64,000 bases of DNA from an uncultured Eubacteriales bacterium (GTDB lineage Bacteria > Bacillota > Clostridia > Christensenellales > Aristaeellaceae), in NCBI GenBank assembly GCA_900548145.1, contig URJB01000005.1:14589-78588 (forward strand). Direction: 5' to 3'. The position numbers and the translations under genes were made by a program. A model generated the notes under the pieces. It made no database searches. It was not told the DNA's origin and saw only the letters and a list, made by a program, of their open reading frames with translations. Each line of letters opens with the position of its first letter. Within the stretch, counting starts at the first letter, position 1. Positions 31,159 to 52,475 of the stretch are shown here, piece by piece.

Positions 31159-31174
31159 TCTCTTTCCCTCCCTC

Positions 31175-31897: not shown

Positions 31898-31978
31898 ATT
31901 CTCCCACCTCCCAGGATAAGTTCAGGATCAATACTTCCGCATTGTAGCATTCCTGCAAATCCGCGTCAATGGCGGGTT

Positions 31979-32701
31979 TCAGCGTTCAATGGTGTCGTCC
32001 TCGAAGCATTCCCGCATCAGCCCGGAGCGGCCCATCACTCTCCCCTGTCCTTCCAGGTGGGACGCGTCGCCCAGCCCGCAGCAGCGGAAGATGATCTTTC
32101 CCTTGGTCCTTTCCTCCGTTACCAGCGTCGTCACCGAAGCGGTGGGCATAAAGAACGCCTGCCACAGCACCGCCGGAGAGATCATCATCAGATGGGACAG
32201 AATCGCCATGCTGATGCCGAAATGGCAGAACAGGGCGATGGTTTTGTGATTGTTTTCGCCTGTATACAGGTTTCCCTGACGAATCAGCCCGTAGCGGGCC
32301 AACAGCTCGTCCACCCCGACGGCAGTCTCGTCGTAGACCTCCGCCACATCGCCGGTGCGAAGGAGCCCATCCTCCCGCCACTGGGTGGGATGCAGCAGCT
32401 TCTCCTGCGCCGTCCAGTACTGGGGCATCAGGTTCCACGGACAGCGGCGCTTGCCGGTGTACGGCTCGTCGAACCCGCCCCAGAACTCCCTCAACCACGG
32501 CAGTGTCTCTCCGGTGCGCCCCAGCGCTTTCAGCGTGACGCCGGCGGTGTCCTGCGCCCGTCCCAGCGGCGAAAGATAAAAGTCGTCAATAGCGGCCGAC
32601 TGCAGCCGCCGGGCCAGCAGTTCCGCCTCCACCCAGCCCTGCTCCGTCAGCGTGTCGTGCTTATAATCGGGGTCTCCGTGCCGGATCAGCAAAATTTTCA
32701 T
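31979..32701 (-). CDS. Histidine phosphatase (phosphoglycerate mutase) family protein
   Basis: MKILLIRHGDPDY gives the N-terminal RHG catalytic motif; a later FCHFG block supplies the second His. Confidence 0.85.
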   Translation of the reverse strand: MKILLIRHGDPDYKHDTLTEQGWVEAELLARRLQSAAIDDFYLSPLGRAQDTAGVTLKALGRTGETLPWLREFWGGFDEPYTGKRRCPWNLMPQYWTAQEKLLHPTQWREDGLLRTGDVAEVYDETAVGVDELLARYGLIRQGNLYTGENNHKTIALFCHFGISMAILSHLMMISPAVLWQAFFMPTASVTTLVTEERTKGKIIFRCCGLGDASHLEGQGRVMGRSGLMRECFEDDTIER

Positions 32702-32842
32702 TGTTCTTTCCCCTTTCCGCTACCTTGCATTTTTACCATTATATCACATTTTTCCCGCGCCACCAACTTTTTTCGCCCATGGAAAAACCCTCCTGCGAAC
32801 TTTTCCATCCGCAGGAGGGTCTCTTTCCTGATTTCTTTTCCG

Positions 32843-34180
32843 TCAGGCGTCGATGGAATCGTGGAACTGCATCGGCACCTTCCGTCCATACACCCGCATG
32901 GAGCGCATGGCCATGCCCGGCAGGCTCTTCAGGATGCGCACCCGGAAGGCGTAGCCCCGCATCTTGCCCAGCGGGATGATCCGCTTGTGGCCGATGCTCT
33001 GTCCCTGAGCCAGCGGCACCCAGCGATCCAGTCCGTCCTTGGTGCACCAGTAGGCGGGCCAGCGGGTTTCCACCACCCACTCCAGCACGTGCTGGCCTTC
33101 GGTCTGGTCCTCCATCAGCTCGATATATTCCGCGTCCACCGGGCCGTCGAACCAGACCTCCATCCGTTCGCCGTCCAGCAGCGTTTCCGTCATGCCCGCG
33201 TGAACGCCCAGCTCCCGGTTCACCAGCTCGCCCAGGCTGCGGAAGGAGTCCACCTGATCCTCACTGATCAGGCCGTCCGTGTCCGGGACGCAGCCGATAA
33301 GCAGGTTGGCGTTCCGGCCCACGCTGGTCAGGTACCGCTGGAACAGATATTCGCCGCTGTAGGTTTTGTCCGCGTCCATGGCATGATACATCCAGCCGCC
33401 CTTATAGGCGTACATCACGTCCCGCACCGGCATATCCACCTCCACGGGGGCCCAGACCGGATCCATGGGGTCGCCGGGAGAGTCGGGGGTCACGTTGTCC
33501 CGCTCCGGCTCCGTCTGATAGTGGGCGCAGGACCAGCACTCCGGCACGGCCACGCCCTGTTCGCTGCCGCTCCACCGCAGCACGTTCGTGATGCCCGGGC
33601 AGCCGCCGAAGCAGATCAGGTTGGGGGCGATTCGCTTCAGCAGGCCGGGAATATCCGGGCCGCCCTTTTCGGGCCGGAGAATGCCGCCGTCAAACCAGAT
33701 CTCAAACAGGGGGCCGTAGCCCGTGATCAGCTCCTCCAGCTGCCGCAGCAGCAGGTCGTTCAGTTTTTCCCGATCCAGCGTCCCGTCCTCCCGGGTGCAA
33801 AGGTCGCTCAGATAGCGTCCGCCCAGACTGTAATACAGGCCCGGCTTGATGCCGTACTTATGGCAGGACTGCACAAATTCCCCCACTACGTCCCGGGGAA
33901 CGGCGGAATTGCCCACATGATAATCATGCACCTTGGTGGGCCAGAGGCAGAAGCCCGTTCCGTGCTTGGCCGTCAGCAGAGCGTACCGCGCCCCTGCGGC
34001 TTTGGCCGTGCGCAGCCATTGATCCGTGTCCAGCTTTTTGGGATTCCAGCACTGGATATCCGGGATGGGGTCGCCGAATTTCCATTCCGGTGCAAAGACC
34101 TCCATATCAAAATGGAAAAAGACCCCCAGTTCGCTCTCGTGCCATTCCAGCATTTCCGCCGTCGGTTTTGCCAGCGTCAT
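32843..34180 (-). CDS. Alpha-L-fucosidase (GH29), cytoplasmic
   Basis: LGVFFHFD and ARYALLTAKHGTGFCLWPT blocks typical of GH29. No signal peptide. RBS aggagg. Confidence 0.85.
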   Translation of the reverse strand: MTLAKPTAEMLEWHESELGVFFHFDMEVFAPEWKFGDPIPDIQCWNPKKLDTDQWLRTAKAAGARYALLTAKHGTGFCLWPTKVHDYHVGNSAVPRDVVGEFVQSCHKYGIKPGLYYSLGGRYLSDLCTREDGTLDREKLNDLLLRQLEELITGYGPLFEIWFDGGILRPEKGGPDIPGLLKRIAPNLICFGGCPGITNVLRWSGSEQGVAVPECWSCAHYQTEPERDNVTPDSPGDPMDPVWAPVEVDMPVRDVMYAYKGGWMYHAMDADKTYSGEYLFQRYLTSVGRNANLLIGCVPDTDGLISEDQVDSFRSLGELVNRELGVHAGMTETLLDGERMEVWFDGPVDAEYIELMEDQTEGQHVLEWVVETRWPAYWCTKDGLDRWVPLAQGQSIGHKRIIPLGKMRGYAFRVRILKSLPGMAMRSMRVYGRKVPMQFHDSIDA

Positions 34181-34226
34181 CGTGTTTGTCCTCCTGTTTG
34201 CATTGGGATTCAGCTTCTCTTCTTCT

Positions 34227-34267
34227 AAAAATAGAAAGAAGCCCAGCCGAAAAAGTTCCGGCTAGGC
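34227..34267 (-). terminator. Intrinsic terminator after potD
   Basis: Minus strand reads gcctagccgg-aacttttt-cggctgggc followed by ttctttctattttt. Confidence 0.65.
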
Positions 34268-34282
34268 ATTCGATACGGATCG

Positions 34283-35332
34283 TCAATTTCCCTGTTTGGT
34301 GTTCAGCACTTCCTGCCAGAGAGTGTTGTACACCGTCAGCCAGGTCGCGTCCAGATCGTTGAAATATTCGCAGTTGGCTACAGTCTCGTCGGAGGGGTTC
34401 ATGACGGGATTGGAAGCGTAGTCCTCGCCCATCAGCTCGATGGCCGCGTCGTTGGGGCAGCAGTAGCCGATGGCTTCGCAGTTGCGCACGGCCACTTCAG
34501 GGCTGCACAGATAGTTGATGAACTTTTCGGCGTTCTCCTTGTTCTTGGCCGCCGCAGGGATCACTGCGCAGTCCACCCACACGTTGCTGCCCTCGTCCGG
34601 CACGGAGTAGGCCAGCTTGTCGTTGAGCTCGATGGCGTATTCCGCATCGCCGGAGTAGACCACCGCCAGCGCAGCCTCCCCGGCCACCATCTTATCCTTG
34701 AACTCGTCCAGACCGTAGGCCTTCACCATGCCGGACTGCTTCTGCTGGATCAGCAGGTCGGCGGCGGCGCGCAGCTGGGTGTAGTCGGCGGAGTTCATGC
34801 TGTAGCCCTGCAGCTTCAGCGCAAGGCCCATGGCGTCGCGGATGCTGTTCATCATCAGCACCTGTCCCTTGTACTTCTCGTTCCAGAGCACGTTCCAGGT
34901 CTTTACGTCCTCCGCGTCCACCATCTCGGTGTTGTACAGGATGCCGAGGGTGCCCCACTGATAGGGCACGGAATGGGCGTTGCCCTCGTCGTAGCTGGGG
35001 TTTTTCAGGCTTTCCTTGATGTTCTGGAAATTGGGAATGTTGTCATAGTTGATCTCGGCCAAAAGGCCCTTGTTGGCCAGACGCTCCACGCAGTATTCGG
35101 ACGGGAACACCACGTCGAAAGCGCCAGGATTGGCTTCCACCTGCACCAGCATGTCCTCGTTGGTGGTAAAGCGCATGTAGTTGACGTGAATGCCGGTTTC
35201 GGCTTCGAAGTCCTGCAGCACGGACTCGTCGATATAGTCTTCCCAGTTGAACACGTTCACCACTTCCTGCGCCAGAGCACAGGCGGGAAGCAGCAGGGCG
35301 ATACAGAGCAGAAAGGCAACCATTTTTTTCAT
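34283..35332 (-). CDS. potD: Spermidine/putrescine ABC transporter substrate-binding lipoprotein
   Basis: Lipobox LLLPAC. Colinear with my recollection of E. coli PotD (NWEDYID, VPYQWGT, VWVDCAVIPAAAKNKENA). Confidence 0.9.
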   Translation of the reverse strand: MKKMVAFLLCIALLLPACALAQEVVNVFNWEDYIDESVLQDFEAETGIHVNYMRFTTNEDMLVQVEANPGAFDVVFPSEYCVERLANKGLLAEINYDNIPNFQNIKESLKNPSYDEGNAHSVPYQWGTLGILYNTEMVDAEDVKTWNVLWNEKYKGQVLMMNSIRDAMGLALKLQGYSMNSADYTQLRAAADLLIQQKQSGMVKAYGLDEFKDKMVAGEAALAVVYSGDAEYAIELNDKLAYSVPDEGSNVWVDCAVIPAAAKNKENAEKFINYLCSPEVAVRNCEAIGYCCPNDAAIELMGEDYASNPVMNPSDETVANCEYFNDLDATWLTVYNTLWQEVLNTKQGN

Positions 35333-35433
35333 GTGGGATTCCTCCTATCATATTTTTTGACAGGGCAATCTCTGTCTAAGGAAAAGCCGTCCGGCCCTTC
35401 CTAAGCCATTGGGCGCGCCGCGCCCGGGGAGTT

Positions 35434-36204
35434 TTATGCCTTGGTCTCAGCGGTCCTGCGGTTGACGATCAACAGCAGAATCAGCAAAACCACGAACATC
35501 AGGGAGGAAAGGGCATAGTACACGGGGCTGATGCCCAGCTTGGTGGCCGAATAGATCAGCGTAGACAGATTCTGCACCAGCGGGCTGGTGGTGAAATAGC
35601 TGATGGTGAAATCGTCCAGCGACAGGGTGAAGGCCAGCAGCGCGCCGGTGACGATGCCCTGACGGCACTCGGGCACGATGACGTGGGTCAGCGCGTAGCC
35701 GGGCGTAGCGCCCAGATCCAGCGCCGCCTCGTAGGTGTGCTTGTTCATCTGCTTAAGCTTCGGCATGACGGACAGCACCACATAGGGCACGTCGAAGGTG
35801 ATATGGGCCAGCACCATGGTGATGTAGCCCCGGTCCACCTTGGCAAAGATGAACAGCAGCATCAGTGAGATACCGGTCACGATGTCCGGCATGGTGTTGG
35901 GCAAATTGGTGATGGTCATCATGATGGCCTGAGGCCGCTTCTTCATGCTGTAGATGCCGATGGCGGCCAGTGTGCCCAGCACCGTGGCGATCACCGTGGC
36001 GATCACCGCGATAGACACCGTCACCCACAGGGCGTTCATAATGGAGGCATTCTGGAACAGCTCGCCGTACCAGCGGAAGGAAAAGCCCTCCCACTTGGCC
36101 CGGCTCTTGCCCGCGTTGAAGGACTGGCAGATCAGCACCACGATGGGCACGTACAGGAACACCAGAATGATCCCCAGGTAAAACTTCTTGAAAAAGTTCT
36201 TCAT
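35434..36204 (-). CDS. potC: Spermidine/putrescine ABC transporter permease
   Basis: 256 aa, 6 TM, EAA-type loop EAALDLGATPGYALTHVIVP. Confidence 0.88.
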   Translation of the reverse strand: MKNFFKKFYLGIILVFLYVPIVVLICQSFNAGKSRAKWEGFSFRWYGELFQNASIMNALWVTVSIAVIATVIATVLGTLAAIGIYSMKKRPQAIMMTITNLPNTMPDIVTGISLMLLFIFAKVDRGYITMVLAHITFDVPYVVLSVMPKLKQMNKHTYEAALDLGATPGYALTHVIVPECRQGIVTGALLAFTLSLDDFTISYFTTSPLVQNLSTLIYSATKLGISPVYYALSSLMFVVLLILLLIVNRRTAETKA

Positions 36205-37190
36205 GCGATGCCGCCTCCTTCCCCGTTAGGATCCGCCTTGCGCAGGATGGACAGGGAGATCAGGATCAGCACCATCATGATCAGGGAAAGGGCGCTGCCC
36301 AGATTCCAGTCGCCGGCGGTCAGGAACGTGGTCTCGATCAGGTCGCCGAACATCTGGGTGGAGCCGCCGCCCAGCACCCGGGGAATGAAGAACGTGGTCA
36401 CCGAGGGCATGAACACCATCGTGATCCCGCTGATCACGCCGGGGATGCTCAGCGGCATGGTCACCTTCAGCAGGGTCTTGGCTTCGTTGCAGCCCAGATC
36501 CATGGCGGCCTCGCCCAGCTTGGGGTCCATCTTGCTCAAGCTGGTGTAGATGGGGAATACCATGAAGGGCAGGAAGTTGTACACCATGCCCAGCAGCACC
36601 GCCCCCTGATTGTACATCAGCTGCACCCTGCCCACGCCGATCCATTCCAGAAAGGCGTTGATCAGGCCGTTATCCTCCAAAAGGCTCATCCACGCGATGG
36701 TGCGCAGCAGGAAGTTCATCCACATGGGGATGATGAACAGCACCACCAGCGTGGAGCCCAGCTTCATGTGCCGGTCGGCCATGAACAGTGCCGCCGGGTA
36801 GCCCAGCAGCAGGGAAAAGGCCGTGCACAGGAACGCCATCCATAGGGAATAGACCAGCGTGTCCACATTGACGGAGCCCCGGGGAATGGTGGCGGCCACC
36901 TCGTCCCCGGCCACGGCCCGCATGTTTTCCCGCATGATGTGGTTGCTGTCCCAGAACGCCCGGAAGTTATCCAGCGTCAGCTGGCCGCTGCCGTCGGTCA
37001 GAGCGTAATAGGCGATCAGCACGCAGGGAAGCAGCGTAAACAGGATCATCCACAGAATATAGGGCGAAGCGAACAGCGAACGCTTCACGCCGTGATTCCG
37101 CTTCACGCTCAGGGTCAGAAGCCCCAGAAACAGCATCAGCCCCGCGCCCATCAGCGCGTAGGCCCACCAGGGCAGCGATACGTTATACAT
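36201..37190 (-). CDS. potB: Spermidine/putrescine ABC transporter permease
   Basis: [24 protein letters not shown] loop. ATGA overlap with potC. Start set to the ATG at 37190 (9 nt after gaggagg); 37208 is the alternative. Confidence 0.85.
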
Positions 37191-38265
37191 CCGCGATCGC
37201 CTCCTCATCCACCGGCGGCTCCGGCATGGGATGCATGATATGAATGTTGTAGGGCACGATGGTCAGGCCCACCCGGGAGCCCTGGGGCTGCATGATGGTG
37301 GAGTGGACCTTGAACACCGTTTCGCCGGTGTCGATCATCATTTCGTAGTGAACGCCCTTGAACAGCACGCTCTGCACCACGCCGGTCAGCTGGCCGATGT
37401 CCTCGCCCACGATCATGATGTCCTCCGGGCGGATGACCACGTCCACCGGCGCGTTTTCGCCGAAGCCGGAATCCACGCAGGGGAAGTCGAAGCCGCAGAA
37501 GTTCACCAGCTCGTCCTCGATCATGGTGCCCCGCAGGATGTTGCTCTCGCCGATGAAGTTGGCCACGAAAGCGTTGGCCGGCTCGTCATACACGCTCTTG
37601 GGGTCGCCGATCTGCAGGATGTGGCCGTCCTGCATGACCACGATGGTGTCGCTCATGGTCAGGGCTTCTTCCTGATCGTGGGTCACGTAGATAAAGGTGA
37701 TGCCCAGCTGCTGCTGCATGCTCTTCAGCTCCAGCTGCATCTCCTTGCGCAGCTTCAAGTCCAGTGCGCCCAGCGGCTCGTCCAGAAGCAGCACCTCCGG
37801 CTCGTTCACCAGCGCCCGGGCAATGGCGATGCGCTGCTGCTGGCCGCCGGAGAGCTGATCCACGCCCCGCTTGCCGTATCCCTTCAGGTTGACCAGCTCC
37901 AGCATCCGGTCCACCTTCACGTCGATCTCCTTGCGACCCATTTTCTTGATCTTCAGGCCGAAGGCGATGTTGTCCCGCACGTTCAGGTGGGGAAACAGCG
38001 CGTATTTCTGGAACACGGTGTTCACCCGGCGCTTATAGGGCGGCACGGCGGTGATGTCCTTGCCCTCAAAAAACACGGTGCCCGTGGTGGGGTATTCAAA
38101 CCCGCCGATGATCCGCAGGGTGGTGGTCTTGCCGCAGCCGGAAGGGCCCAGCAGCGTCAGGAACTCCTTTTTGCGGATGTAAAGGTCGATATCGCTCAAA
38201 ACGGTGGTTCCGTCGAACTCCTTGGATACGTTTTTCAGTTCAATGAGGTGTTCCTGTTCCATCAT
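37183..38265 (-). CDS. potA: Spermidine/putrescine ABC transporter ATPase
   Basis: Walker [30 protein letters not shown]-terminal TOBE-like domain. Confidence 0.92.
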
Positions 38266-38297
38266 GACGGTACAGCTCCTTTAGCAGGCTCAAGCTC

Positions 38298-38831
38298 TCA
38301 AAAGCTCGGCGGAGTAGAGATCCAAAGAATGACGGCGGGGTGAGCGCCGGTGTTTTCCAGATAATGGGTCGTGTTGGGGTGCAGGCAGAAGCTGAAGCCC
38401 TTCCGCACCCGGTAGGTGCGTTTGCCCGCCACCAGATTTACCTGACCGTGAAGCACATAGCCGAACTCCTCGCTTTCCAGCGGCGGCAGTTCATTGCTTC
38501 GGGCCCCCGGCTGCAGTTCCAGCAGGATGGGTTCCATGCTGTTGCGCTGAGCGTCGGGCACCAGCCAGGTAATCTTCTTATCGTCCTCTTCCTTTTCGAA
38601 CATGTCCTGCGGGGCGTAGACCACTTTTTCCGCCGAATCGTCGGAGAAAAACTCCTTCAGGCTGGAACCGAGGCATTCCAGCATGTCCGTCAGGGTGGCG
38701 ATGGACGGCGAGGCCAGATCCCGTTCCACCTGCGAAATAAAGCCCTTGCTCAGCTCGCAGCGGTCGGCCAGTTCTTCCTGCGTCAGGTTGCGCTGGATCC
38801 GCAGTTCCTTCAGCTTCTCCCCAATGTTCAC
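38298..38831 (-). CDS. XRE-family HTH regulator with C-terminal cupin domain (PuuR-like)
   Basis: GTG start. HTH LTQEELADRCELSKGFISQVER; cupin block EEFGYVLHGQVNLVAGKRTYRVRKG. Confidence 0.85.
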   Translation of the reverse strand: MNIGEKLKELRIQRNLTQEELADRCELSKGFISQVERDLASPSIATLTDMLECLGSSLKEFFSDDSAEKVVYAPQDMFEKEEDDKKITWLVPDAQRNSMEPILLELQPGARSNELPPLESEEFGYVLHGQVNLVAGKRTYRVRKGFSFCLHPNTTHYLENTGAHPAVILWISTPPSF

Positions 38832-38871
38832 CGAGGCTCATCTCTTTCCGATGGGTGTTGTTTTCGTCCGT

Positions 38872-38892
38872 GAGTTTAGAAATAGTAAACTC
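38872..38892. promoter_or_regulatory. Inverted repeat in the 5' leader of the puuR-like/pot operon (candidate operator)
   Basis: gagttta-gaaatag-taaactc, located just downstream of the predicted -10. Confidence 0.45.
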
Positions 38893-38906
38893 GCAAAACA
38901 GTATGT

Positions 38907-38935
38907 ATTTAATCACAAAGCAGGGGGGATGTCAA
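38907..38935 (-). promoter_or_regulatory. Sigma-A promoter for the regulator-potABCD operon
   Basis: Minus strand reads ttgaca-17 nt-ttaaat with a TGn extension (tgattaaat). Confidence 0.65.
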
Positions 38936-38982
38936 TAGAATTTGTCGTTTTTTGCGCGGAAAATTCGAAGGCTCAAACACGC

Positions 38983-39036
38983 AAAAACCGTCCTGCCTTC
39001 AGCCGTGTTTCGGCCCGGACAGGACGGTTTTTTGTT
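38983..39036. terminator. Bidirectional intrinsic terminator
   Basis: aaaaaccgtcctg...caggacggtttttt, 14 nt past the yitT-like stop. Confidence 0.8.
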
Positions 39037-39049
39037 TCTACCTATTAGA

Positions 39050-39919
39050 TTACATCACGCCGCGGAAGCCCTTGCCGATGATCTCCGTGGTGTTCGTGAT
39101 GAGGATAAAGCAGGAAGGATCCACGCTCTTGGCGTACAGGCGCAGCTTGATGGCCTGCGCCCGGTTCACCACCGTCAGGATGACGGTCTTGTTCTCGTGG
39201 GTGTACGCGCCCTCGCCCTGCATGTCCGTCGCGCCCCGGTGCAGATCCTTCACAATAAAGTCGATGATCTGCTCCGGCTTGCTGGTGATGATCTGGAAGC
39301 ACTTATGCACGGCGATGTTTTCCAGCACCATGTCCACGATGACGGATTTCAGCGCCAGTCCCAGCAGGCTGAACATCCCCGTTTCGATGCCGAAGGCAAT
39401 GCCGGACACCACCGTAATGGTAAAGTCCACAAACAGCAGGCACTGGCCAATGTTGATGTTGGTCTTGCTCTTGAGGATCATGGCCACGATGTCCGTGCCG
39501 CCGCTGGAAGCCTGCATATTGAACATGATGGCGCTGCCGATGGCGGGGAAGGTGACGGCGAAGATCAGCTCCAGCAGGGGCTGATTGGTCAGAGGCGCGT
39601 CCATGGGGCAAATGTACTCCAGCCCCCAGATCACGCAGGACATCAGCAGGCTCACATAGGCGGTGCGGAAGCCGAAGGAGCGTCCGAATACCAGAAAGCC
39701 CAGCAGCAGCAGGCTCTGGTTGATGATGAACACAAACGCGCCCGCCGACAGGTTCGGGGCGTAATGGCCCAGAATGATGGAAATACCGCTGACGCCGCCG
39801 GTGGAGAAATGATTGGGGAATTTGAAGAAATAAATCCCTACGCACATCAGCAATGTGGCCAGCGTCAGCATGGTATAGTCCCGCACGATCTGAGCAGGCG
39901 TTTGTTTTTCCTTCTGCAT
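39050..39919 (-). CDS. YitT-family membrane protein (with DUF2179-like C-terminal domain)
   Basis: FKFPNHFSTGGVSGISIIL motif, about 5 TM, soluble C-terminal domain ending ITNTTEIIGKGF. Confidence 0.85.
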   Translation of the reverse strand: MQKEKQTPAQIVRDYTMLTLATLLMCVGIYFFKFPNHFSTGGVSGISIILGHYAPNLSAGAFVFIINQSLLLLGFLVFGRSFGFRTAYVSLLMSCVIWGLEYICPMDAPLTNQPLLELIFAVTFPAIGSAIMFNMQASSGGTDIVAMILKSKTNINIGQCLLFVDFTITVVSGIAFGIETGMFSLLGLALKSVIVDMVLENIAVHKCFQIITSKPEQIIDFIVKDLHRGATDMQGEGAYTHENKTVILTVVNRAQAIKLRLYAKSVDPSCFILITNTTEIIGKGFRGVM

Positions 39920-39951
39920 CTTTTCGTTCTCTCCTTACGTTTTCCGGGCGG

Positions 39952-40683
39952 TTACAGGCTGAATTCCACGCGCACGGCGCGGCCCACGAAGTTCAGTTCC
40001 GGCAGGGCGCAGCTCTCGCCTGCGTATTCCCGGTCGTAGCTCTGCAGAAGCACGTTCATCGCGTCCAGCTTCTTCACCTTGCGCAGGAAGCGGTGGCCGT
40101 CCTTTTCCACCAGCATGATGGCCCCGTCAATGGGGCTGCCGGCGGGCACGATCAGGCAAAGATCCTCCCGCATGATGCGGAAGCCCCGCATGGTATCATC
40201 GGGAGCCTGAAAATAGAAGACCTTTTCAGGCGCAGAACCCTCGATGCGGCCATCCATAATGGGCAGCAGCCGGTGATCCACTTCCTTCATGACGGCGTTG
40301 TACACCGGCACCCGCTTCAGCACGCTGCTGAGCGCGTCCAGCCACACGCCGCCGGTGATGTTCTTGCTTTCTTCCTCGCTTTGGGAGCTGTAGACCTTCT
40401 CCGCCTCCCGGGCGCGGGGCGCAGGCTTCGGCGCGGCTTTGGGCGCGGCGGTCTGCAAATCGACGGTGGCGGCGATGTCGTCCAGGCTGAACCCGGCCTC
40501 GTTCTGCTCGGTCAGCCCCATTTTCTTCAAAATGCGGCGGGCCTGATCGTCCGCGATGATGCGGGTGCCCGCCTCCACATCCTTCAAATAGCCCTCGCTC
40601 ACGCCGCCCAGCTTGGCCACCTGCTTCAGTGTCATGTTCCGGCGCAGACGCTCGGTATGCAGCAAATCTCCCAAACGGCTCAT
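39952..40683 (-). CDS. XRE-family HTH protein with Ala/Pro/Lys-rich linker and LexA/S24-like C-terminal beta-domain
   Basis: HTH MTLKQVAKLGGVSEGYLKDVEAG. C-terminal FQAPDDTMRGFRIMREDLCLIV...LRKVKK resembles the S24 GDSM...K layout but reads DTM. Start set at MSRLGDLL, not the track's 40743. Confidence 0.7.
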   Translation of the reverse strand: MSRLGDLLHTERLRRNMTLKQVAKLGGVSEGYLKDVEAGTRIIADDQARRILKKMGLTEQNEAGFSLDDIAATVDLQTAAPKAAPKPAPRAREAEKVYSSQSEEESKNITGGVWLDALSSVLKRVPVYNAVMKEVDHRLLPIMDGRIEGSAPEKVFYFQAPDDTMRGFRIMREDLCLIVPAGSPIDGAIMLVEKDGHRFLRKVKKLDAMNVLLQSYDREYAGESCALPELNFVGRAVRVEFSL

Positions 40684-40844
40684 AGAGATGATCCTCCCAT
40701 AAAAAACAGAATAAAAACAAAAGCCTTTTGGAGTATACCACATCCCTGCGGCGAATGGACAGGGAAAAAATGAAAAATTGCTCTCTTTTTCAGGTCATTC
40801 TTCGGGCGCTTCGTCAAAAAATCACAAAATATTAGCGTGAGGAC

Positions 40845-40873
40845 TTTTTACAAACAGAAAAATGTGATATACT
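40845..40873 (+). promoter_or_regulatory. Extended -10 promoter of the NifU-like/GGGtGRT operon
   Basis: tg-a-tatact with tatact at 40868-40873; weak -35 (ttttta or tttaca). Followed by atgtgt-N7-acacat (40882-40900) and the RBS aggagg. Confidence 0.6.
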
Positions 40874-40927
40874 ACACCTGTATGTGTCCACATTACACAT
40901 TATGTTGGAACAGGAGGAACCAATTCG

Positions 40928-41629
40928 ATGCAATACTCCAAGGAAGTTGAAGAAATGGTATGCGTCGCCAAGGGCCCGAACCACGGCCCCGCGCCCATTC
41001 CCGAAGAAGGCAAGTGGGTGCAGGCGAAGGAGATCAAGGACATCTCCGGCCTGACCCACGGTATCGGCTGGTGCGCCCCTCAGCAGGGCGCCTGCAAACT
41101 GACCCTGAACGTCAAGAACGGCGTCATTGAAGAAGCGCTGGTGGAGACCATCGGCTGCTCCGGTATGACCCATTCCGCCGCTATGGCCAGTGAAATTCTG
41201 CCCGGCAAAACCATTCTGGAAGCGCTGAACACCGACCTGGTGTGCGACGCTATCAACACCGCCATGCGCGAGCTGTTCCTGCAGATCGTCTACGGCCGCA
41301 CTCAGTCCGCCTTCTCCGACGACGGTCTGGTCATCGGCGCGGGTCTGGAAGACCTGGGCAAGGGCCTGCGCAGTCAGGTCGGCACCATGTACGGCACCAA
41401 GCTGAAGGGCACCCGTTATCTGGAAATGGCCGAAGGCTATGTGCTCAAGCTGGCGCTGGACAAGGACGATCAGGTCTGCGGCTACCAGTTCCTGTCTCTG
41501 GGCAAGATGATGGACGCCATCAAGAAGGGCATGTCCCCCAACGAAGCCTACGAGAAGAACATCGGCACCTACGGCCGGTTCAAGGCGGAAGACGGCGCGG
41601 TCAAGTGGATCGACCCGCGCAAGCAGTAA
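40928..41629 (+). CDS. NifU/IscU-like N-terminal domain protein with C-terminal half of unknown function
   Basis: Cys triad in IscU-like spacing: QGACKLTL (C56), TIGCSGMTHSAAMAS (C77), LVCDAI (C106). Strongly biased codon usage. Confidence 0.85.
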   Translation: MQYSKEVEEMVCVAKGPNHGPAPIPEEGKWVQAKEIKDISGLTHGIGWCAPQQGACKLTLNVKNGVIEEALVETIGCSGMTHSAAMASEILPGKTILEALNTDLVCDAINTAMRELFLQIVYGRTQSAFSDDGLVIGAGLEDLGKGLRSQVGTMYGTKLKGTRYLEMAEGYVLKLALDKDDQVCGYQFLSLGKMMDAIKKGMSPNEAYEKNIGTYGRFKAEDGAVKWIDPRKQ

Positions 41630-41645
41630 TAGGAGGTGTGCAGAA

Positions 41646-42662
41646 ATGGCTTTGTTTGAAGGTTTTGAACGTCGCATGCCTCAGCTCCAGCCTGTGCTTG
41701 AAAAGTATGGCTTCAAGGATTTTGATGAGCTGAAGGCTTTCAACAATTCCAAGGGCGTTGACGCCTACAAGATCGTGGAGGGCATCCAGCCCATCGCTTT
41801 CGAAAACGCCAAGTGGGCTTATGAACTGGGCGCGGCCATCGCGCTGAAGAAGGATGTCAAGACCGCCGCCGAGGCTGCCAAGTGCATCGGCGAAGGCCTG
41901 CAGGCTTTCTGCATCCCCGGCTCCGTCGCCGACCAGCGTCAGGTGGGTCTGGGCCACGGCAATCTGGGCGCCATGCTGCTGGACGAGAAGACCGAGTGCT
42001 TCGCGTTCCTGGCCGGCCACGAGTCCTTTGCCGCTGCGGAAGGCGCCATCGGCATCGCCCGCAACGCCAACAAGGTCCGCAAGACTCCCCTGCGCGTCAT
42101 CCTGAACGGTCTGGGCAAGGACGCCGCCATGATTATCAGCCGCATCAACGGCTTCACCTATGTGCAGACCAAGTACGACTACCTGTCTGCCGACGTGAAG
42201 GAAGACCACGCTCTGACCATCGTCAACGAGACCAAGTACTCCGACGGTGAGCGCTCCAAGGTTCGCTGCTACGGCGCGGACGACGTGCGCGAGGGCGTTG
42301 CCATCATGTGGCACGAGGGCGTGGACGTTTCCATCACCGGCAACTCCACCAACCCCACCCGCTTCCAGCACCCCGTGGCGGGCACCTACAAGAAGGAATG
42401 CTGGGAAGCCGGCAAGCAGTACTTCTCCGTGGCTTCCGGCGGCGGCACCGGCCGTACCCTGCATCCCGACAACATGGCCGCCGGCCCCGCCTCTTACGGC
42501 ATGACCGACACCATGGGCCGTATGCACTCTGACGCTCAGTTCGCCGGTTCTTCCTCCGTTCCCGCTCACGTGGAAATGATGGGCCTGATCGGCATGGGCA
42601 ACAACCCCATGGTCGGCGCGACCGTGGCTGTGGCCGTGGCTGTAGAGGAAGCACAGAAGTAA
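41646..42662 (+). CDS. GGGtGRT-family protein (function unknown)
   Basis: Contains the literal family motif VASGGGTGRTLHPD. 338 aa, RBS aggaggtg, 17 nt after the upstream gene. Confidence 0.88.
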   Translation: MALFEGFERRMPQLQPVLEKYGFKDFDELKAFNNSKGVDAYKIVEGIQPIAFENAKWAYELGAAIALKKDVKTAAEAAKCIGEGLQAFCIPGSVADQRQVGLGHGNLGAMLLDEKTECFAFLAGHESFAAAEGAIGIARNANKVRKTPLRVILNGLGKDAAMIISRINGFTYVQTKYDYLSADVKEDHALTIVNETKYSDGERSKVRCYGADDVREGVAIMWHEGVDVSITGNSTNPTRFQHPVAGTYKKECWEAGKQYFSVASGGGTGRTLHPDNMAAGPASYGMTDTMGRMHSDAQFAGSSSVPAHVEMMGLIGMGNNPMVGATVAVAVAVEEAQK

Positions 42663-42674
42663 TTTCTTCGTGTA

Positions 42675-42720
42675 TTTTTCACAAAAATGTGGTCACTTAA
42701 GCGCCGTAAATTGTGAAAAA
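42675..42720. repeat. Perfect 10-bp inverted repeat with 26-nt spacer, directly after the GGGtGRT stop
   Basis: tttttcacaa (42675-42684) pairs with ttgtgaaaaa (42711-42720). Confidence 0.7.
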
Positions 42721-42721
42721 T

Positions 42722-42784
42722 GACGAGTGATTTTTGTTCACTCGTACACTACTCGTACATTACTCGTACACCTCTACTCGTACA
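42722..42784. repeat. Array of ACTCGTACA repeats (one inverted copy plus four direct copies)
   Basis: Direct copies at 42740-48, 42751-59, 42762-70 and 42776-84 (spacing 11, 11, 14 bp). Inverted core gacgagtga at 42722-30 forms a hairpin with the first copy. Confidence 0.8.
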
Positions 42785-42786
42785 CC

Positions 42787-42832
42787 AAAAACGACTCCCT
42801 CGTGGCTTACGCTGCGAGGGAGTTTTTGTTTT
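42787..42832. terminator. Bidirectional intrinsic terminator
   Basis: aaaaacg-actccctcg-tggcttacgctg-cgagggagt-ttttgtttt. Confidence 0.8.
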
Positions 42833-42837
42833 ACCAT

Positions 42838-42981: not shown

Positions 42982-44199
42982 TTACCAGTAAAATTCGCCC
43001 CACCCGATCAAGTCCAGCCCGTACAGCGTACCAATCCCGTTCAGGCGCACATAAGCCATGCCGTCCATGGGAATAATGCCCTCCTTGTCGATGGTCGTCA
43101 GCAGGTTTCCGTTCGCGTCAAACACATCGACCGTGGTCAGGCAATCGACCTTCAGCTGCGCGGCTGAAACGTCCTTCCCCTTGTAGTCGCGCAGGTAGAG
43201 CATCGCCTGAGACAAGTCCACATACAGATCGGAATAACGCACGGAGCGTCCGGACAGCCGCGCAACGTTTTCAAGGCGATTAAAAGTCGGATACAGCGTC
43301 ACCTGCTGAACGCCCCGCAGATCAATCGGCGCGTCCATATCCCCGTAGTCGAACAGGGCGCTGTTCTCCTTCAGCCATGGATAAAATCCGTCCAATACAT
43401 CCTCGCCATAGCTGGCCTTCAGGGCGCTGACTTCCCTTTCGACCCGCTTCCCCTTTGTGGCTTGATCCAGTGCCGTCATCCATGCCGTGTCGTTTCCATA
43501 CACCCGATCCAGATAGGCCATAAAACGCAATCCTTCGCTGTAGCCCGGATTGCCGGAATAGGGATAGGGTTCTTTCATCCAGTGAGACAGTTCCTCCGTA
43601 TACAGTGTTTCTTCGTCTTCCAGTGCAACGTTATAGAGGATCTGTTGGGACGGGCCGACCGCATAGGCCAGCGCCGGGTCGTTTTCTTCCAGCCACTTTG
43701 CCGTTTGATAGGAGGTATATTCCGCAAAGCCTTCCGCCATCAGCCGGCTTTCCCAATCCTCCGAAGCCTCGTGATAAAAGTAATTCAGGGTATGGCTCAT
43801 TTCATGTAAAATGGCATAGCTGCCATTAGCCAGAAGATCCGCTGGGTAAAGGTCGATCTGGTTCTGATACGCAACGGGGACGTAGAATTCCCCCTCCTCC
43901 GACGTTTCGTTTGCGCGGCACCGCACCTCGATCTTCCGCGCATAGGCTCCGTCTTCAAAGCGAATGCCGCTGACCGTCTCCATGGCGCGGTATATCCCTT
44001 CCCACCGTTCCATCAGGTCGCCCGGCACGTACACGCCCGCGTCGATCGACACATGGAAGTGTTCGCTGAAAAGCTCGATCGGCTCGCTGGTGATGGTTCC
44101 CTGGGGAAACGTCACAGCCTGTTCCGCAAAGGCCGGTATCACCATGCACAGCAGGAGGAGCGCCGTTAGAAAGATCGCCGTTTTTTTCTTCATTTTCAT
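42982..44199 (-). CDS. Secreted gluzincin-like (HEXXH...E) putative metallopeptidase
   Basis: Signal peptide MKMKKKTAIFLTALLLLCMVIPAFA. AILHEMSHTL followed 19 residues after the HEXXH by MAEGFAEY, an M1-like HEXXH-X18/19-E arrangement. Confidence 0.75.
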   Translation of the reverse strand: MKMKKKTAIFLTALLLLCMVIPAFAEQAVTFPQGTITSEPIELFSEHFHVSIDAGVYVPGDLMERWEGIYRAMETVSGIRFEDGAYARKIEVRCRANETSEEGEFYVPVAYQNQIDLYPADLLANGSYAILHEMSHTLNYFYHEASEDWESRLMAEGFAEYTSYQTAKWLEENDPALAYAVGPSQQILYNVALEDEETLYTEELSHWMKEPYPYSGNPGYSEGLRFMAYLDRVYGNDTAWMTALDQATKGKRVEREVSALKASYGEDVLDGFYPWLKENSALFDYGDMDAPIDLRGVQQVTLYPTFNRLENVARLSGRSVRYSDLYVDLSQAMLYLRDYKGKDVSAAQLKVDCLTTVDVFDANGNLLTTIDKEGIIPMDGMAYVRLNGIGTLYGLDLIGWGEFYW

Positions 44200-48729: not shown

Positions 48730-51354
48730 TCAATATTCCAGCTCGATCTCCGAACCGGTCAGTTTCTTATGCACCACGATCTTCTTGTCGATGCGCTCCC
48801 GAAGCTCGGGCATATGGGAGATCACGCCGATCATCCGATCGCCGTCCGCCAGCGAGGACAGCAGCGCCATGGCGTTGCGCAGGGCGTTTTCGTCCAGCGT
48901 GCCGAAGCCCTCGTCGATGAACATGGCTTCCAGCCGCACGCCGCCGCTCTCGCTCTGCACCACGTCGGACAGACCCAGCGCCAGCGACAGGGAAGCCAGA
49001 AAGCTCTCGCCGCCGGACAGGGTGGACACGTCCCGCCACTGGCCCGTGGCCCGATCCAGCACGTCCAGATCCAGCCCGGACTGACTGCGGCGATCCTTCG
49101 CTTCTTCCTTCAGCCGCAGCACGAACATACCGTCGGTCATCTGGGTCAGCCGCTTATTGGCCGCTGCCACCACCTGCTTGAAATAGTACTGTTGCACGTA
49201 GGTCTCGAAGGTGATCTTGACCTTCTGACTCAGCTGCCCGCTCATGGCCCGGTACAGGTCGTCCAGCACCGCCCATTCCTCGGCGTGGGCTTTCTTCTGC
49301 TCCGCCGCCCGGCGGATGGCCTTTCCCGCCTCCTGATGCAGCGTCAGCCGCCGGTCGCAGCCCCGGCTTCGTTCCTGTGCCTGCCGGTACTGCTCCGTCA
49401 TGGCCTTCTGCTGCTGCAGCAGGGCTTCGATATCGGCCCGTGCGCTGTCCTTCAGCTGAGTTTCCCGCTCCTGAACCCGGTCGTTCAGCGATTTCTTTTT
49501 TTCTTCATAGCGGCGAATGGCCCCGTCCAGCCGTTCCGTTTCTTCCGCGGGCAGGCAGGCGGTGCGGTAAGCCGTTTCGTCCTCGAAGCCCTGCTGCGCC
49601 AGCCCTGCGGCAAACTCTCTGTCCAGCCGGTCGGCTTCCTTTTCCAGCTCGCCTGTCTTTTTCAGGCAGGCTTCCAGCAGGACGGCGGCCTTTTCCAGAC
49701 GGCTCTGGCACTGGCTCCGCCGGGTTTCCGTCCGCTCCGCCGCTTCCCGAATTTTCCGGGCGGCTGCGTCCGCTTCGTTCATTCGCTGACGGACGCTCTG
49801 TTCCGTGTCCTCGTCGCCGATTCCTTCCTCCTGCAGGGTCTTTTGCAGGGTCTCCAATGCAGCCCGAGCTGCGGCGGTCTGGCTGGAAATTTTATGCAGC
49901 TGTTCTTCCAGCCGCTTGCGGCGGTCGTCCGCCGCCTGAAACTGCTCCTGTGTCGCCCCGCCTTCCTGCAGGACGGCGGGGGCGGGATGGTGGGTCGCGC
50001 CGCATACGGGGCAGGGCTCGCCCTCCCGGAGCTCCCGGGCCAACAATCCGCTCTGGCTGCGGTAGTAAGCCTGCCGCACGGCCAGATATTCCTGCTCGGC
50101 CCTGTTGCTGTCCTCCAAGGCCTTTGTCTGCAAACGGTCCAGCCGTGCCAGCTCCGCCGTGTCCTTCTGCCGCTTTTCCAGAAATTTCAGGCAGCTTTCC
50201 AGCCGTTTGACCAGCCGGACGTTTTCCTCCGCCAGCGGAAGCTGCTCCCGTGCCTGCTTCGCCGCCTGTTCCAGCGCGGGAAGGCTGGCTTCCTGCGCCT
50301 GTTTTTCCTGCGTCAGCCGGGCGGCCTGCGTCTTTTCCGCGTCCAGACTTTGCCGGTTCCGCTGGCGCAGCTGATCGGTCGGCCCCAGCAGTTGAGCACT
50401 GCGAGCCGCCGCCAGCGCGGCCTTTCGCTCCTCTACGGCGCTTTTTTTTTGCAGAAGACCGGCCAACTCCTGTTTCCACTGTTCCAGCTCGTCAAAGCGC
50501 TGGTTCCGATTGCGCCCGTCGGCGATGGCGGCGGTCAGGGCTTTCAGCTGACCGTCCAGCGTGTCGCACTGGCCGTCCGCTTCTTTTTTCAGACTGGTTT
50601 CATAGGCGTACAGCCCCCGCAGCGCCTCCAACAGCTGATCGGCGTACTTTGCGTCCGTCTGGTACTGTTTCAGCCTTTCCCGGTCGGGAAATTCCGGCTC
50701 GGGGCTGATCTTTCCCGCTTCGGTCACGATGCGCAGATCCAGTTCCCTTTGCATCTGCGCGGCAGCGGCGCATTTTTCCTTGGCCTTCTTTTGCAGATCG
50801 GCGTAAAGCGAGGTGTTGAACAGCTGCTGGAACAGCTTTTTGCGGTCATCGGACTTGGCGTTGAGGATCTTCAAAAAATCCCCTTGGGCGATCATCACCG
50901 TCTGGGCGAACTGATCCTGACTCAGGCCGATCAGTTCCTGCGCTTTGGCCTTCACCTCGTCCGTCCCCGTCCAGCATTCGCCGGTGTCCAGTTCCGTCAG
51001 CTCAGCGGCGGCCTTCTGTTCCACCAGATCGTCCCCCCGGCGGCTCTGGCGCAGGTAGGGCGGATTCCGTTTCAGGCGATAGGTGTGCTGACGGTGCTGA
51101 AATACCAGCTCCACATAGGTATCCGTGTCCCGGGCGGCATAGTCCGACCGAAAGGATTTGGACGCGCGGCGTTCCCTGCCCCCGGAACCCTCGCCGTAAA
51201 AGGCGAAGCTGATAGCGTCGAAAATGGTGGTCTTGCCCGCGCCCGTGTCGCCGGTGATGAGAAAAATGCCATTTTCGCAAAGCTTGGTAAAGTCGATCGT
51301 TGTCGTTTTCGCGTAGGGGCCGAAGGCCGAAAGGGTCAATTTCAGCGGCTTCAT
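48730..51354 (-). CDS. sbcC: SbcC/Rad50-type exonuclease ATPase subunit
   Basis: Walker A GDTGAGKTT, long coiled coil with zinc hook CPVCG, signature LSGGESF, Walker B FIDEGFGTLD. Confidence 0.92.
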   Translation of the reverse strand: MKPLKLTLSAFGPYAKTTTIDFTKLCENGIFLITGDTGAGKTTIFDAISFAFYGEGSGGRERRASKSFRSDYAARDTDTYVELVFQHRQHTYRLKRNPPYLRQSRRGDDLVEQKAAAELTELDTGECWTGTDEVKAKAQELIGLSQDQFAQTVMIAQGDFLKILNAKSDDRKKLFQQLFNTSLYADLQKKAKEKCAAAAQMQRELDLRIVTEAGKISPEPEFPDRERLKQYQTDAKYADQLLEALRGLYAYETSLKKEADGQCDTLDGQLKALTAAIADGRNRNQRFDELEQWKQELAGLLQKKSAVEERKAALAAARSAQLLGPTDQLRQRNRQSLDAEKTQAARLTQEKQAQEASLPALEQAAKQAREQLPLAEENVRLVKRLESCLKFLEKRQKDTAELARLDRLQTKALEDSNRAEQEYLAVRQAYYRSQSGLLARELREGEPCPVCGATHHPAPAVLQEGGATQEQFQAADDRRKRLEEQLHKISSQTAAARAALETLQKTLQEEGIGDEDTEQSVRQRMNEADAAARKIREAAERTETRRSQCQSRLEKAAVLLEACLKKTGELEKEADRLDREFAAGLAQQGFEDETAYRTACLPAEETERLDGAIRRYEEKKKSLNDRVQERETQLKDSARADIEALLQQQKAMTEQYRQAQERSRGCDRRLTLHQEAGKAIRRAAEQKKAHAEEWAVLDDLYRAMSGQLSQKVKITFETYVQQYYFKQVVAAANKRLTQMTDGMFVLRLKEEAKDRRSQSGLDLDVLDRATGQWRDVSTLSGGESFLASLSLALGLSDVVQSESGGVRLEAMFIDEGFGTLDENALRNAMALLSSLADGDRMIGVISHMPELRERIDKKIVVHKKLTGSEIELEY

Positions 51355-52475
51355 CGAATCTCTCCCTCCAGTTCCTTCCGCAGACTGCGCAGAATCTCCA
51401 TATGCCGGGGGCCGGGCGGGCAGTCGTTATTCTGCAGCCGGTAAAAATCCGAGAACAGCTCCTCCGGGCTTTTGTTCTCCATGGCTTCCCGGGCCAGCAC
51501 GTCAATATCCGTCTTGGTTTTGGAATTGACCACGGAAAACTTCATCATGTTGGGAAATACGGTGCTCACCGTCACCCGTGCGTCCGGGGGCGGCAGCTCG
51601 TCCCGCAGTGTGACCCACACATAGTCCTCCGAATAGGGCATGGTCAGAACGTCGTCCATCAGACCCTCCACCAGCCGCATATCGTGAGGAGGGGCCAGCG
51701 GCACGGTGCGGATGCTGATTTCCCCCTTTTCCTCCATCTCCACCACCGTCACCGATTTTTTCTGGTTCACCTCGGAGAAGGAATACTTCATCAGGGAGCC
51801 CGCATAGCGCAGGGTCTCCCGGGTACACTGCTGCGGCTTGTGGATGTGGCCCAGCGCCACATAATCAAAATCGTCAAACACCGCCGCGTCGATGTTGTCC
51901 AGCCCGCCCACGGTCTTTTCCTCGGAGTCGGAGGTCTCCGCGCCGGTGATGAACTGGTGGCACACCAGCACGTTCCGCTTGGCCGTATCCACCGGCGAAT
52001 GGCGCAGCACCGCCTGCACCGCGTCCTGATAGGTCTCGATCTTCTCATCGGGATAGAACCGGCGCAACTGTATGGGCTTCAAAAACGGTAGCAGACTGAC
52101 CACCAGTTCCCCGTGCTCGTCCTGTAGCGTCACCTGCTGCAAATGGCCGTCAAAGGCCTCGCTGACGTACACGCCCGAGTTTTTCAAAAGCGACGAAAAA
52201 TAGGAAATTCGCTGGGCGGAGTCGTGGTTGCCGCTGATCACGAACACTGCAAGCCCCATTTCCTTCAGCCGGGTGATGAACTGGTCGAACGCGGCCATGG
52301 CTTCGCTCTGGGGCGAGGCTTTCTGGTATACGTCCCCGGCGATCAGCACCGCGTCGACCCGCTCACTTCGGGCGATCTCCTCCACCTGACACAGCAGCCG
52401 AACCTGATCCTCCAAAAATGAAAAGTCGTTCAGGCGTTTGCCCAGATGCAGGTCCGCCAGATGCAGAAATTTCAT
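51351..52475 (-). CDS. sbcD: SbcD/Mre11-type nuclease subunit
   Basis: MKFLHLADLHLG, GDVYQ, GNHDS, GHIH phosphoesterase motifs. 4-nt overlap with sbcC. Confidence 0.92.
   Translation of the reverse strand: MKFLHLADLHLGKRLNDFSFLEDQVRLLCQVEEIARSERVDAVLIAGDVYQKASPQSEAMAAFDQFITRLKEMGLAVFVISGNHDSAQRISYFSSLLKNSGVYVSEAFDGHLQQVTLQDEHGELVVSLLPFLKPIQLRRFYPDEKIETYQDAVQAVLRHSPVDTAKRNVLVCHQFITGAETSDSEEKTVGGLDNIDAAVFDDFDYVALGHIHKPQQCTRETLRYAGSLMKYSFSEVNQKKSVTVVEMEEKGEISIRTVPLAPPHDMRLVEGLMDDVLTMPYSEDYVWVTLRDELPPPDARVTVSTVFPNMMKFSVVNSKTKTDIDVLAREAMENKSPEELFSDFYRLQNNDCPPGPRHMEILRSLRKELEGEIR

Follow-up and report, generated by a model that had tools for sequence, protein, structure and literature searches.

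Organization of the locus

The DNA considered here, referred to below as the window, is a stretch of 64,000 nucleotides (nt) from contig URJB01000005.1 of an uncultured Eubacteriales bacterium (assembly GCA_900548145.1). It carries a two-gene operon in which a protein with the shape of the iron–sulfur (Fe–S) scaffold IscU and four cysteines is followed by a protein of the GGGtGRT family. The function of this family was still called unclear in the 2025 literature (PMC12078515), in line with a preliminary description of the window, made from the nucleotide sequence, which knew of no role for it. The core features of the operon are as follows.

40928..41629, forward strand: gene 1, an open reading frame (ORF) of 233 amino acids (aa)
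41646..42662, forward strand: gene 2, an ORF of 338 aa encoding a GGGtGRT-family protein
40912..40917, forward strand: AGGAGG ribosome-binding site of gene 1, 10 nt 5' of the ATG
41631..41636, forward strand: AGGAGG ribosome-binding site of gene 2, 9 nt 5' of the ATG and within the gap between the genes

The positions and lengths of both ORFs are exactly those given in the preliminary description, and the AGGAGG-type site that it had placed before each gene was found at these distances. The spacing of the genes, in contrast, was put at 17 nt and measures 16 nt (41630-41645).

Conservation and distribution of the gene pair

A scan of genomes for GGGtGRT retrieved 80 loci, whose proteins are 73-96% identical to gene 2. 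These loci belong to the Bacillota, Bacteroidota, Verrucomicrobiota, Planctomycetota, Myxococcota, Acidobacteriota, Desulfobacterota-type lineages, Actinomycetota and Kiritimatiellia. At each of the genome loci with enough upstream DNA (76/76), a homologue of gene 1 (72-98% identity) lies directly upstream on the same strand. The reverse scan, from gene 1 in metagenomes, found GGGtGRT directly downstream in 76 of the 77 loci with room for it, and in the remaining one, a chimera of low coverage, the start of a GGGtGRT ORF is still present. Both genes likewise stand together in one Methanobacteriaceae contig, an archaeal locus, and in a divergent clade that is described below. Conservation of the two genes as neighbors, which had been raised for the Clostridia, is therefore observed well beyond them, in many phyla.

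Of the proteins measurable here that have no part in translation, these two are among the most conserved. In the genome set, pairwise identity has a median of 77% and a minimum of 67% for gene 1, and a median of 80% and a minimum of 70% for gene 2; even the Bacteroidota loci are 74-81% identical to the proteins of the window. Among 1.84 billion representatives clustered at 50% identity, the top 150 matches include about two real full-length proteins, the rest being fragments or chimeras, so that almost the whole family lies within approximately 50% identity. One of the two low-identity representatives, P0340, was considered as a distant branch and rejected as a product of frameshifts; starting from the other, a small but genuine clade was reached.

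Natural fusions of gene 1 to gene 2 were also sought among over-long database proteins, all of which turned out to be assembly chimeras with internal duplications or unrelated N-termini. In both families, many entries that are over-long or otherwise odd (P0001, P0002, P0121, P0123, P0241, P0251, P0275, P0305, and P0340) stem from chimeric metagenome assemblies or from frameshifted calls, and some of them are internally duplicated. The very high conservation at the DNA level may be what gives rise to these chimeric family members, which inflate the apparent diversity of the family.

These data bear on the simplest reading of the locus, namely that co-transcription is all that links the two genes and that their functions are independent. 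That no natural fusion was found is compatible with independence, as is the fact that interaction of the two proteins is something we infer. On the other hand, order and strand are kept in approximately 150 loci across phyla and in the archaeal locus, with gaps that are mostly 10-45 nt, while all flanking genes vary: no other neighbor occurs in more than 5 of the 80 loci, and the main clade has no conserved third gene. The matched conservation levels of the two proteins also argue against independence, which is accordingly considered very improbable.

Codon usage and expression

The window contains no ribosomal-protein genes, and codon bias was therefore judged without a reference set, within the window. 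The effective codon number (Nc) of the pair, 29.6 and 28.5, gives the two lowest values among the 49 putative genes of the window. These values are 14-17 under the expectation from third-position GC content (GC3), compared with 8-11 for typical neighbors. Codon choice was then compared with that of 21 window genes that are equally GC3-rich. Arg is encoded by CGT or CGC in 18 of 19 cases in the pair versus 40% in the comparison set (p = 1.5e-6), Gly by GGC or GGT in 64 of 64 versus 75% (p = 4e-8), and Thr by ACC in 26 of 28 versus 57%, with p values that span 1e-4 to 4e-8 for these three; Lys AAG and Ser TCC are also in significant excess. The pair nearly lacks CGG, AGR, GGA, GGG, and ACG codons, and its GC3 is no higher than that of the upstream neighbors.

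The narrow codon set that had been noticed by eye in these two genes is thus borne out for Arg, Lys, and Gly, to which Thr and Ser can be added, and it is the strongest in the window. However, the Asn, Asp, Tyr, and Phe choices that had been listed with them do not differ significantly from those of the 21 GC3-rich neighbors. The ORF at 13103-14734 (forward strand, 543 aa), which had been said to share the pattern, does so, with an excess of bias like that of the pair (Nc 35.1, 16 under the GC3 expectation). This ORF had been labeled a solute-binding protein; a Pfam search at E <= 1e-3 gave no match for it.

On the basis of this bias, the operon in the window is probably highly expressed. For relatives of the pair, the abundance that had been predicted is supported by published proteomes obtained in vivo, and codon bias is what supports it in the window organism. 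GGGtGRT and its 'NifU' partner have been detected together in rumen and human gut metaproteomes, and a rumen proteome places GGGtGRT among the enzymes of central metabolism.

Iron has a strong influence on the expression of these relatives. In Bacteroides thetaiotaomicron, BT0173-BT0174 (GGGtGRT and 'NifU') fall 11-13-fold at low iron (PMC10434189). Similarly, iron raises the level of the Clostridium pasteurianum protein 7.1-fold in early phase and 2.2-fold in late phase (PMC5395762). BT0173-BT0174 belongs to another phylum than the window organism and is the same two-gene locus by the names its authors use, being equated here by name and not by alignment. It is the sole genetically touched example of the pair: transposon insertions in BT0173-4 are viable and grow normally on glucose, with a 2-fold rise in Roc, whose repression by glucose is weakened by the same factor, in a screen that also gave pfkA mutants (bioRxiv 10.64898/2026.04.10.717545).

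Gene 1: an IscU-fold protein with four invariant cysteines

Gene 1 is predicted to consist of two domains, the first of which contains the cysteines.

Approximately residues 41-122 of gene 1, forward strand: N-terminal domain with the IscU fold (AlphaFold2, Foldseek, and profile alignment)
41072-41074, 41093-41095, 41156-41158, and 41243-41245, forward strand: codons of the invariant cysteines C49, C56, C77, and C106, respectively (from conservation)
Approximately residues 151-228 of gene 1, forward strand: C-terminal alpha/beta domain with no family assignment

The AlphaFold2 model of gene 1, of moderate confidence (predicted local distance difference test, pLDDT, of 69), shows a three-stranded sheet and helices that form an IscU core. 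Foldseek aligned this model to IscU structures of the PDB with a probability of 0.99-1.0, a target-normalized template modeling (TM) score of approximately 0.5 and a root-mean-square deviation of approximately 3 Å over approximately 95 columns. Sequence comparison is fainter: a search of the PDB gave weak IscU and SufU matches, and the Pfam model NifU_N (PF01592), which the preliminary description had named as a check, straddles its cutoff of 22, with 21.6 bits for the complete protein and 22.9 bits when residues 1-124 are used. The NCBIfam scaffold equivalogs are far under their cutoffs (25.6 vs 187.9 and 20.9 vs 192.4; the scaffold models used were PF01592, TIGR01999, and TIGR03419), and SUF_scaf_2 scores 18.8 against a cutoff of 92.5.

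A 70-sequence alignment shows complete or 99% conservation of C49, C56, C77, and C106 as well as of H44 and H82, and all four cysteines are kept in the divergent clade too. Three of them, C56 in GACK, C77 in GCSG, and C106 in LVCD, had been read as a triad spaced like the cluster ligands of IscU. All three are present, and C77 corresponds to Cys63 in a profile alignment to Escherichia coli IscU. However, C77 is the only one that aligns with an IscU ligand: Cys37 is replaced by Gln53 and Asp39 by Ala55, the Cys37 position is preceded by C49 (-4) and followed by C56 (+3), and the fourth invariant cysteine, C49, had been missed. C106 is plausibly equivalent to Cys106 of IscU, as each of them opens the final helix of its domain. 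Between the NTD motif and C106, gene 1 is shorter than IscU, the stretch with His105 and LPPVK being missing, and the LPPVK motif was not found anywhere in the 233-aa sequence. Gene 1 therefore has an IscU fold without the defining features of a scaffold. Because it has four cysteines, and Ala in place of Asp39, these residues suggest that it holds a fixed cluster and would not act as an assembly scaffold.

The main alternative is a system for the assembly, transport or storage of Fe–S clusters, in which gene 1 would be a true IscU/NifU-type scaffold and the GGGtGRT protein its dedicated partner, whether as a chaperone, as a reservoir or as a donor of iron or sulfur. The fold shared with the N-terminal scaffold domain of IscU/NifU (a sheet with helices, C77 at the position of Cys63, and C106 placed like Cys106) and the weak NifU_N, IscU, and SufU matches speak for such a system, databases already label the partner 'NifU', and a pair that is abundant with iron and repressed without it behaves as a store or a buffer might. 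Nevertheless, gene 1 differs from scaffolds in its Gln and Ala at the positions of Cys37 and Asp39, in the extra invariant C49 and C56 that flank this loop, in the absence of LPPVK, in scores that are at or under the cutoffs of the scaffold models, and in an additional C-terminal domain of approximately 100 aa. Nor does a cysteine desulfurase adjoin it: when the Pfam families of 126 immediate neighbors of the pair are ranked by recurrence, Aminotran_5 is absent from the top 25, and no desulfurase was found among the scanned genes that flank it in the window. In addition, an 11-13-fold reduction under iron scarcity would be unexpected for a scaffold, and the B. thetaiotaomicron insertion mutants have no growth defect. 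Because of the lack of a desulfurase partner, the altered ligand pattern, the repression at low iron, and the viability of the mutants, an assembly scaffold is judged the less likely option, and this reading is unlikely overall.

A second alternative dispenses with the cluster. SufU, the zinc-dependent sulfurtransferase of the SUF system, is of the same fold class as gene 1 and figures among both its structural and its sequence matches, which are weak; moreover, a multi-cysteine site on the IscU fold binds zinc in SufU (PDB 5xt5, 6jzv). Gene 1 might then be a zinc-binding, SufU-like sulfur-transfer protein, with GGGtGRT as the sulfur-accepting enzyme, for example in the thiolation of a cofactor or a nucleoside. 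Unlike SufU, however, the pair has no sufS or sufBCD in its neighborhood and no other desulfurase partner nearby, and the SufU ligand set includes an Asp where gene 1 has Ala. The strong iron-dependent expression of its relatives in two phyla also speaks against this reading, and their abundance is far over the needs of a modification enzyme. We regard this second alternative as improbable.

Gene 2: the GGGtGRT protein

The assignment of gene 2 to the GGGtGRT family, first made from its literal SGGGTGRT motif, is confirmed by a full-length match to PF14057 (634.7 bits against a cutoff of 27, E = 3.4e-191, model positions 1-327 of 327). The motif occupies residues 264-271 (nt 42435-42458), of which GGGTGRT is 265-271 (42438-42458), and G265-T271 is invariant in 72 sequences, the divergent clade included. 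With the full model, the literal motif and a typical length, gene 2 is an ordinary member of its family.

AlphaFold2, run with the 72-sequence alignment, predicts the following domains (pLDDT 81, predicted TM score 0.84).

Residues 7-112 of gene 2, forward strand: helical N-domain
Residues 118-263 of gene 2, forward strand: Rossmann-like domain
Remaining C-terminal part of gene 2, forward strand: C-terminal helices

The best-conserved stretches of the protein, residues 234-240 and 268-305, are unplaced in the monomer model (pLDDT < 50). Both are rich in His and Asp, and the second, which starts inside GGGTGRT, is rich in invariant His and Asp. In view of this model, a partner or a cofactor may be needed for these segments to fold.

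Searches for a relative of known structure gave little. A profile search of the PDB with the 72-sequence profile and with the single sequence returned nothing meaningful (the best match was ferritin, E = 0.68), a Pfam search of the sub-domains at E <= 10 found nothing further, and NCBIfam holds no model that matches gene 2. The Foldseek matches of the model (aldehyde dehydrogenase, universal stress protein, epimerase, and phosphofructokinase) were rejected as evidence of homology, since they are generic Rossmann-like hits with E >= 0.027 and TM <= 0.27.

Transcription signals and flanking genes

Outside the coding region, the operon has the following features.

40847..40873, forward strand: putative promoter, read by eye, with a TTTACA -35-like element (40847-40852), a 15-nt spacer region and an extended -10 element, TGaTATACT (40865-40873)
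42663..42792, forward strand: structured 3' untranslated region, with a perfect 11-nt inverted repeat (42674-42684 / 42711-42721), a hairpin (42723-42745) and four TACTCGTACAC units (42739-42786)
42793..42834, forward strand: intrinsic terminator, with a 14-pair stem (8 G-C pairs) and a 4-nt loop (stem-loop 42793-42824), followed by TTTTGTTTT

The extended -10 element named in the preliminary description was thus located by reading the sequence, whereas a consensus promoter scan, which required a spacer of 16-18 nt, called nothing at 40847-40873. The long structured 3' region that had been proposed is well supported: the 178 nt 3' of the operon fold with -55.5 kcal/mol (z = -5.6 vs shuffled sequence) and end in the terminator. 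Just before the terminator, the unit TACTCGTACAC(C/T) is repeated four times in tandem at spacings of 11, 11, and 14 nt; there are four matches versus 0.19 expected, and the unit occurs nowhere else in the window. It was not found in the loci of relatives, where the promoter and the 3' untranslated region of the window had no DNA match beyond the coding regions, and an Rfam search of the operon with its flanks gave no family.

The neighbors of the pair are an HTH/S24 regulator, a YitT membrane protein, a 405-aa protein without a Pfam match and a GNAT/YoaP protein. As these genes are unrelated to the pair and lie on the other strand, the pair is a self-contained transcription unit. The regulator (HTH_3 and Peptidase_S24, LexA-like; 39952-40743, reverse strand) is divergent from the operon, with which it has a 184-nt intergenic region in common. 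A regulator of this HTH_3/Peptidase_S24 type also adjoins the pair in the closest genome locus (L006, 68% DNA identity) and does not in more distant relatives. The ORF of 405 aa (42982-44199, reverse strand) is convergent with the operon and has a hydrophobic N-terminal segment that resembles a signal peptide by eye.

Further away in the window, GC3 shifts sharply between a block of approximately 27 kb (1634-28897, GC3 0.54-0.68), which may be an acquired island, and the genes that lie beside it at 29033-42662 (GC3 0.77-0.88). The window also contains an SbcC/SbcD nuclease pair (48730-52475, reverse strand) and a gene of the choloylglycine (bile-salt) hydrolase family (61953-62927, reverse strand), the latter of which suggests a gut organism.

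Metabolic and regulatory context

In three of the 80 loci (L020, L030, and L047), the pair lies 3' of pgk-tpiA-gpmI, and in a fourth (L076, 254-5001) it is inserted between gpmI and eno. A related context is seen in the divergent clade, whose GGGtGRT proteins are 52-57% identical and whose loci (L081, 2997-7606; L084, 1581-7589; L086, 391-6859; L088, 742-6041) contain a unit of three genes, in which a gene 1-like gene and GGGtGRT are accompanied by a conserved ORF of 317-332 aa, which has no similarity to gene 2, Pfam or PDB entries. These loci sit among ApgM-type, iPGM-type, and His_Phos_1 mutase-like genes, which are three unrelated kinds of phosphoglycerate-mutase-like gene, and a HAD phosphatase.

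Regulatory sites were sought upstream of gene 1 in 71 loci. With the clostridial Rex consensus TTGTKAANNNNTTMACAA, as quoted in PMC8457756, and at most 2 mismatches (<= 2), Rex-box-like sites were found in 10 of the 71 loci, compared with 16 of 1240 GC-matched control windows. They lie 37-168 nt before the start in L003, L012, L014, L016, L022, L027, L044, L067, L068, and L072. Boxes of the Fur, PerR, cre, and IscR types showed no enrichment over shuffles upstream of the same loci. Together, the gene contexts and the Rex-like sites point weakly to a redox-linked metabolism of phosphorylated C3 compounds. The pfkA mutants that came out of one screen with the BT0173-4 insertions are a further link to metabolism.

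The same evidence bears on another possibility, that the pair serves in the stress defense or repair of anaerobes, either by detoxifying oxygen, peroxide or nitric oxide or by repairing damaged clusters, and resembles rubrerythrin in its abundance and iron dependence. The retrieved loci come largely from taxa known as anaerobes. A rubredoxin gene adjoins the pair in the archaeal locus, an in-vivo proteome survey that detected the GGGtGRT protein also detected rubrerythrins, and the expression of relatives is iron-dependent. Against such a role, no stress gene recurs as a neighbor, the Rex-like sites and glycolytic contexts point to metabolism, and the rumen proteome cited above groups GGGtGRT with metabolic enzymes. 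A protective function thus seems doubtful, to about the same degree as the zinc-based one.

Proposed function

We put at about an even chance the explanation that best accommodates these observations, namely that the two proteins are subunits of one obligate, abundant, iron-dependent metalloprotein of many anaerobes, which would be an Fe–S enzyme of central metabolism and not a scaffold. In such an enzyme, gene 1 would use the IscU-type fold as a permanent cluster-binding module, holding an all-cysteine Fe–S cluster for electron transfer. Gene 2 would be the substrate- or cofactor-binding partner: its core is Rossmann-like, the strand and glycine loop formed by SGGGTGRT probably bind a phosphate group, and folding of its invariant His/Asp/Cys segments probably requires contact with gene 1 or a second metal site. 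The operon, with a promoter and a terminator of its own, would be translated at a high level. Its role would most likely be a redox or Fe–S-dependent step of anaerobic central-carbon metabolism that acts on a phosphorylated C3-type metabolite. This step would be dispensable, the pair no longer being made when iron is scarce.

Two-subunit Fe–S enzymes such as the two-subunit L-serine dehydratase and class I fumarate hydratase offer a possible analogy, as they too are encoded by small two-gene operons, are abundant, and lose expression or activity when iron is short. Nevertheless, no sequence or fold similarity to the pair was detected, and the clusters of these enzymes are held by three cysteines and have an open iron site, in contrast to gene 1 with its four invariant cysteines.

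Several observations weigh against an Fe–S enzyme of central metabolism. The model of gene 1 is of moderate confidence, and an IscU-like site with four cysteines could bind zinc, as that of SufU does. In gene 2, C89 and C118 are lost in the divergent clade, and neither a cofactor motif nor a structural homologue points to a particular chemistry (Pfam sub-domain, Foldseek, and PDB profile searches). The glycolytic gene context is limited to 4 of the 80 main-clade loci and one small clade; in the window itself, the flanking genes (the HTH/S24 regulator, the YitT protein, and the protein without a Pfam match) are unrelated to glycolysis, and no Rex-like site was found. Finally, the BT0173-4 mutants combine normal growth on glucose with a regulatory effect of only 2-fold.

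A more specific version of the Fe–S enzyme can be offered tentatively. The pair might represent a new class of metalloenzyme, widespread among anaerobes and abundant in them, in which a fixed electron-transfer cluster on an IscU fold is docked on a Rossmann-like subunit of new fold; the latter would contribute a separate metal site of His/Asp/Cys residues and bind phosphate through its GGGTGRT loop. The step that such an enzyme could catalyze would depend on iron, be linked to ferredoxin and convert a three-carbon, phosphorylated intermediate of glycolysis near phosphoglycerate mutase and enolase.

Possible significance for anaerobic metabolism

The copy in the window stands alone and is a clean example, complete with promoter and terminator, of a family that is catalogued but uncharacterized, and the interest lies in the family and not in this copy. 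The pair is a good target for biochemistry. Assignment of a reaction would reveal a new use of the IscU fold and fill a hole in the metabolic map of Bacteroides, Clostridia, Akkermansia, and some methanogens. It could also partly explain how gut anaerobes re-route their metabolism under iron restriction by the host.

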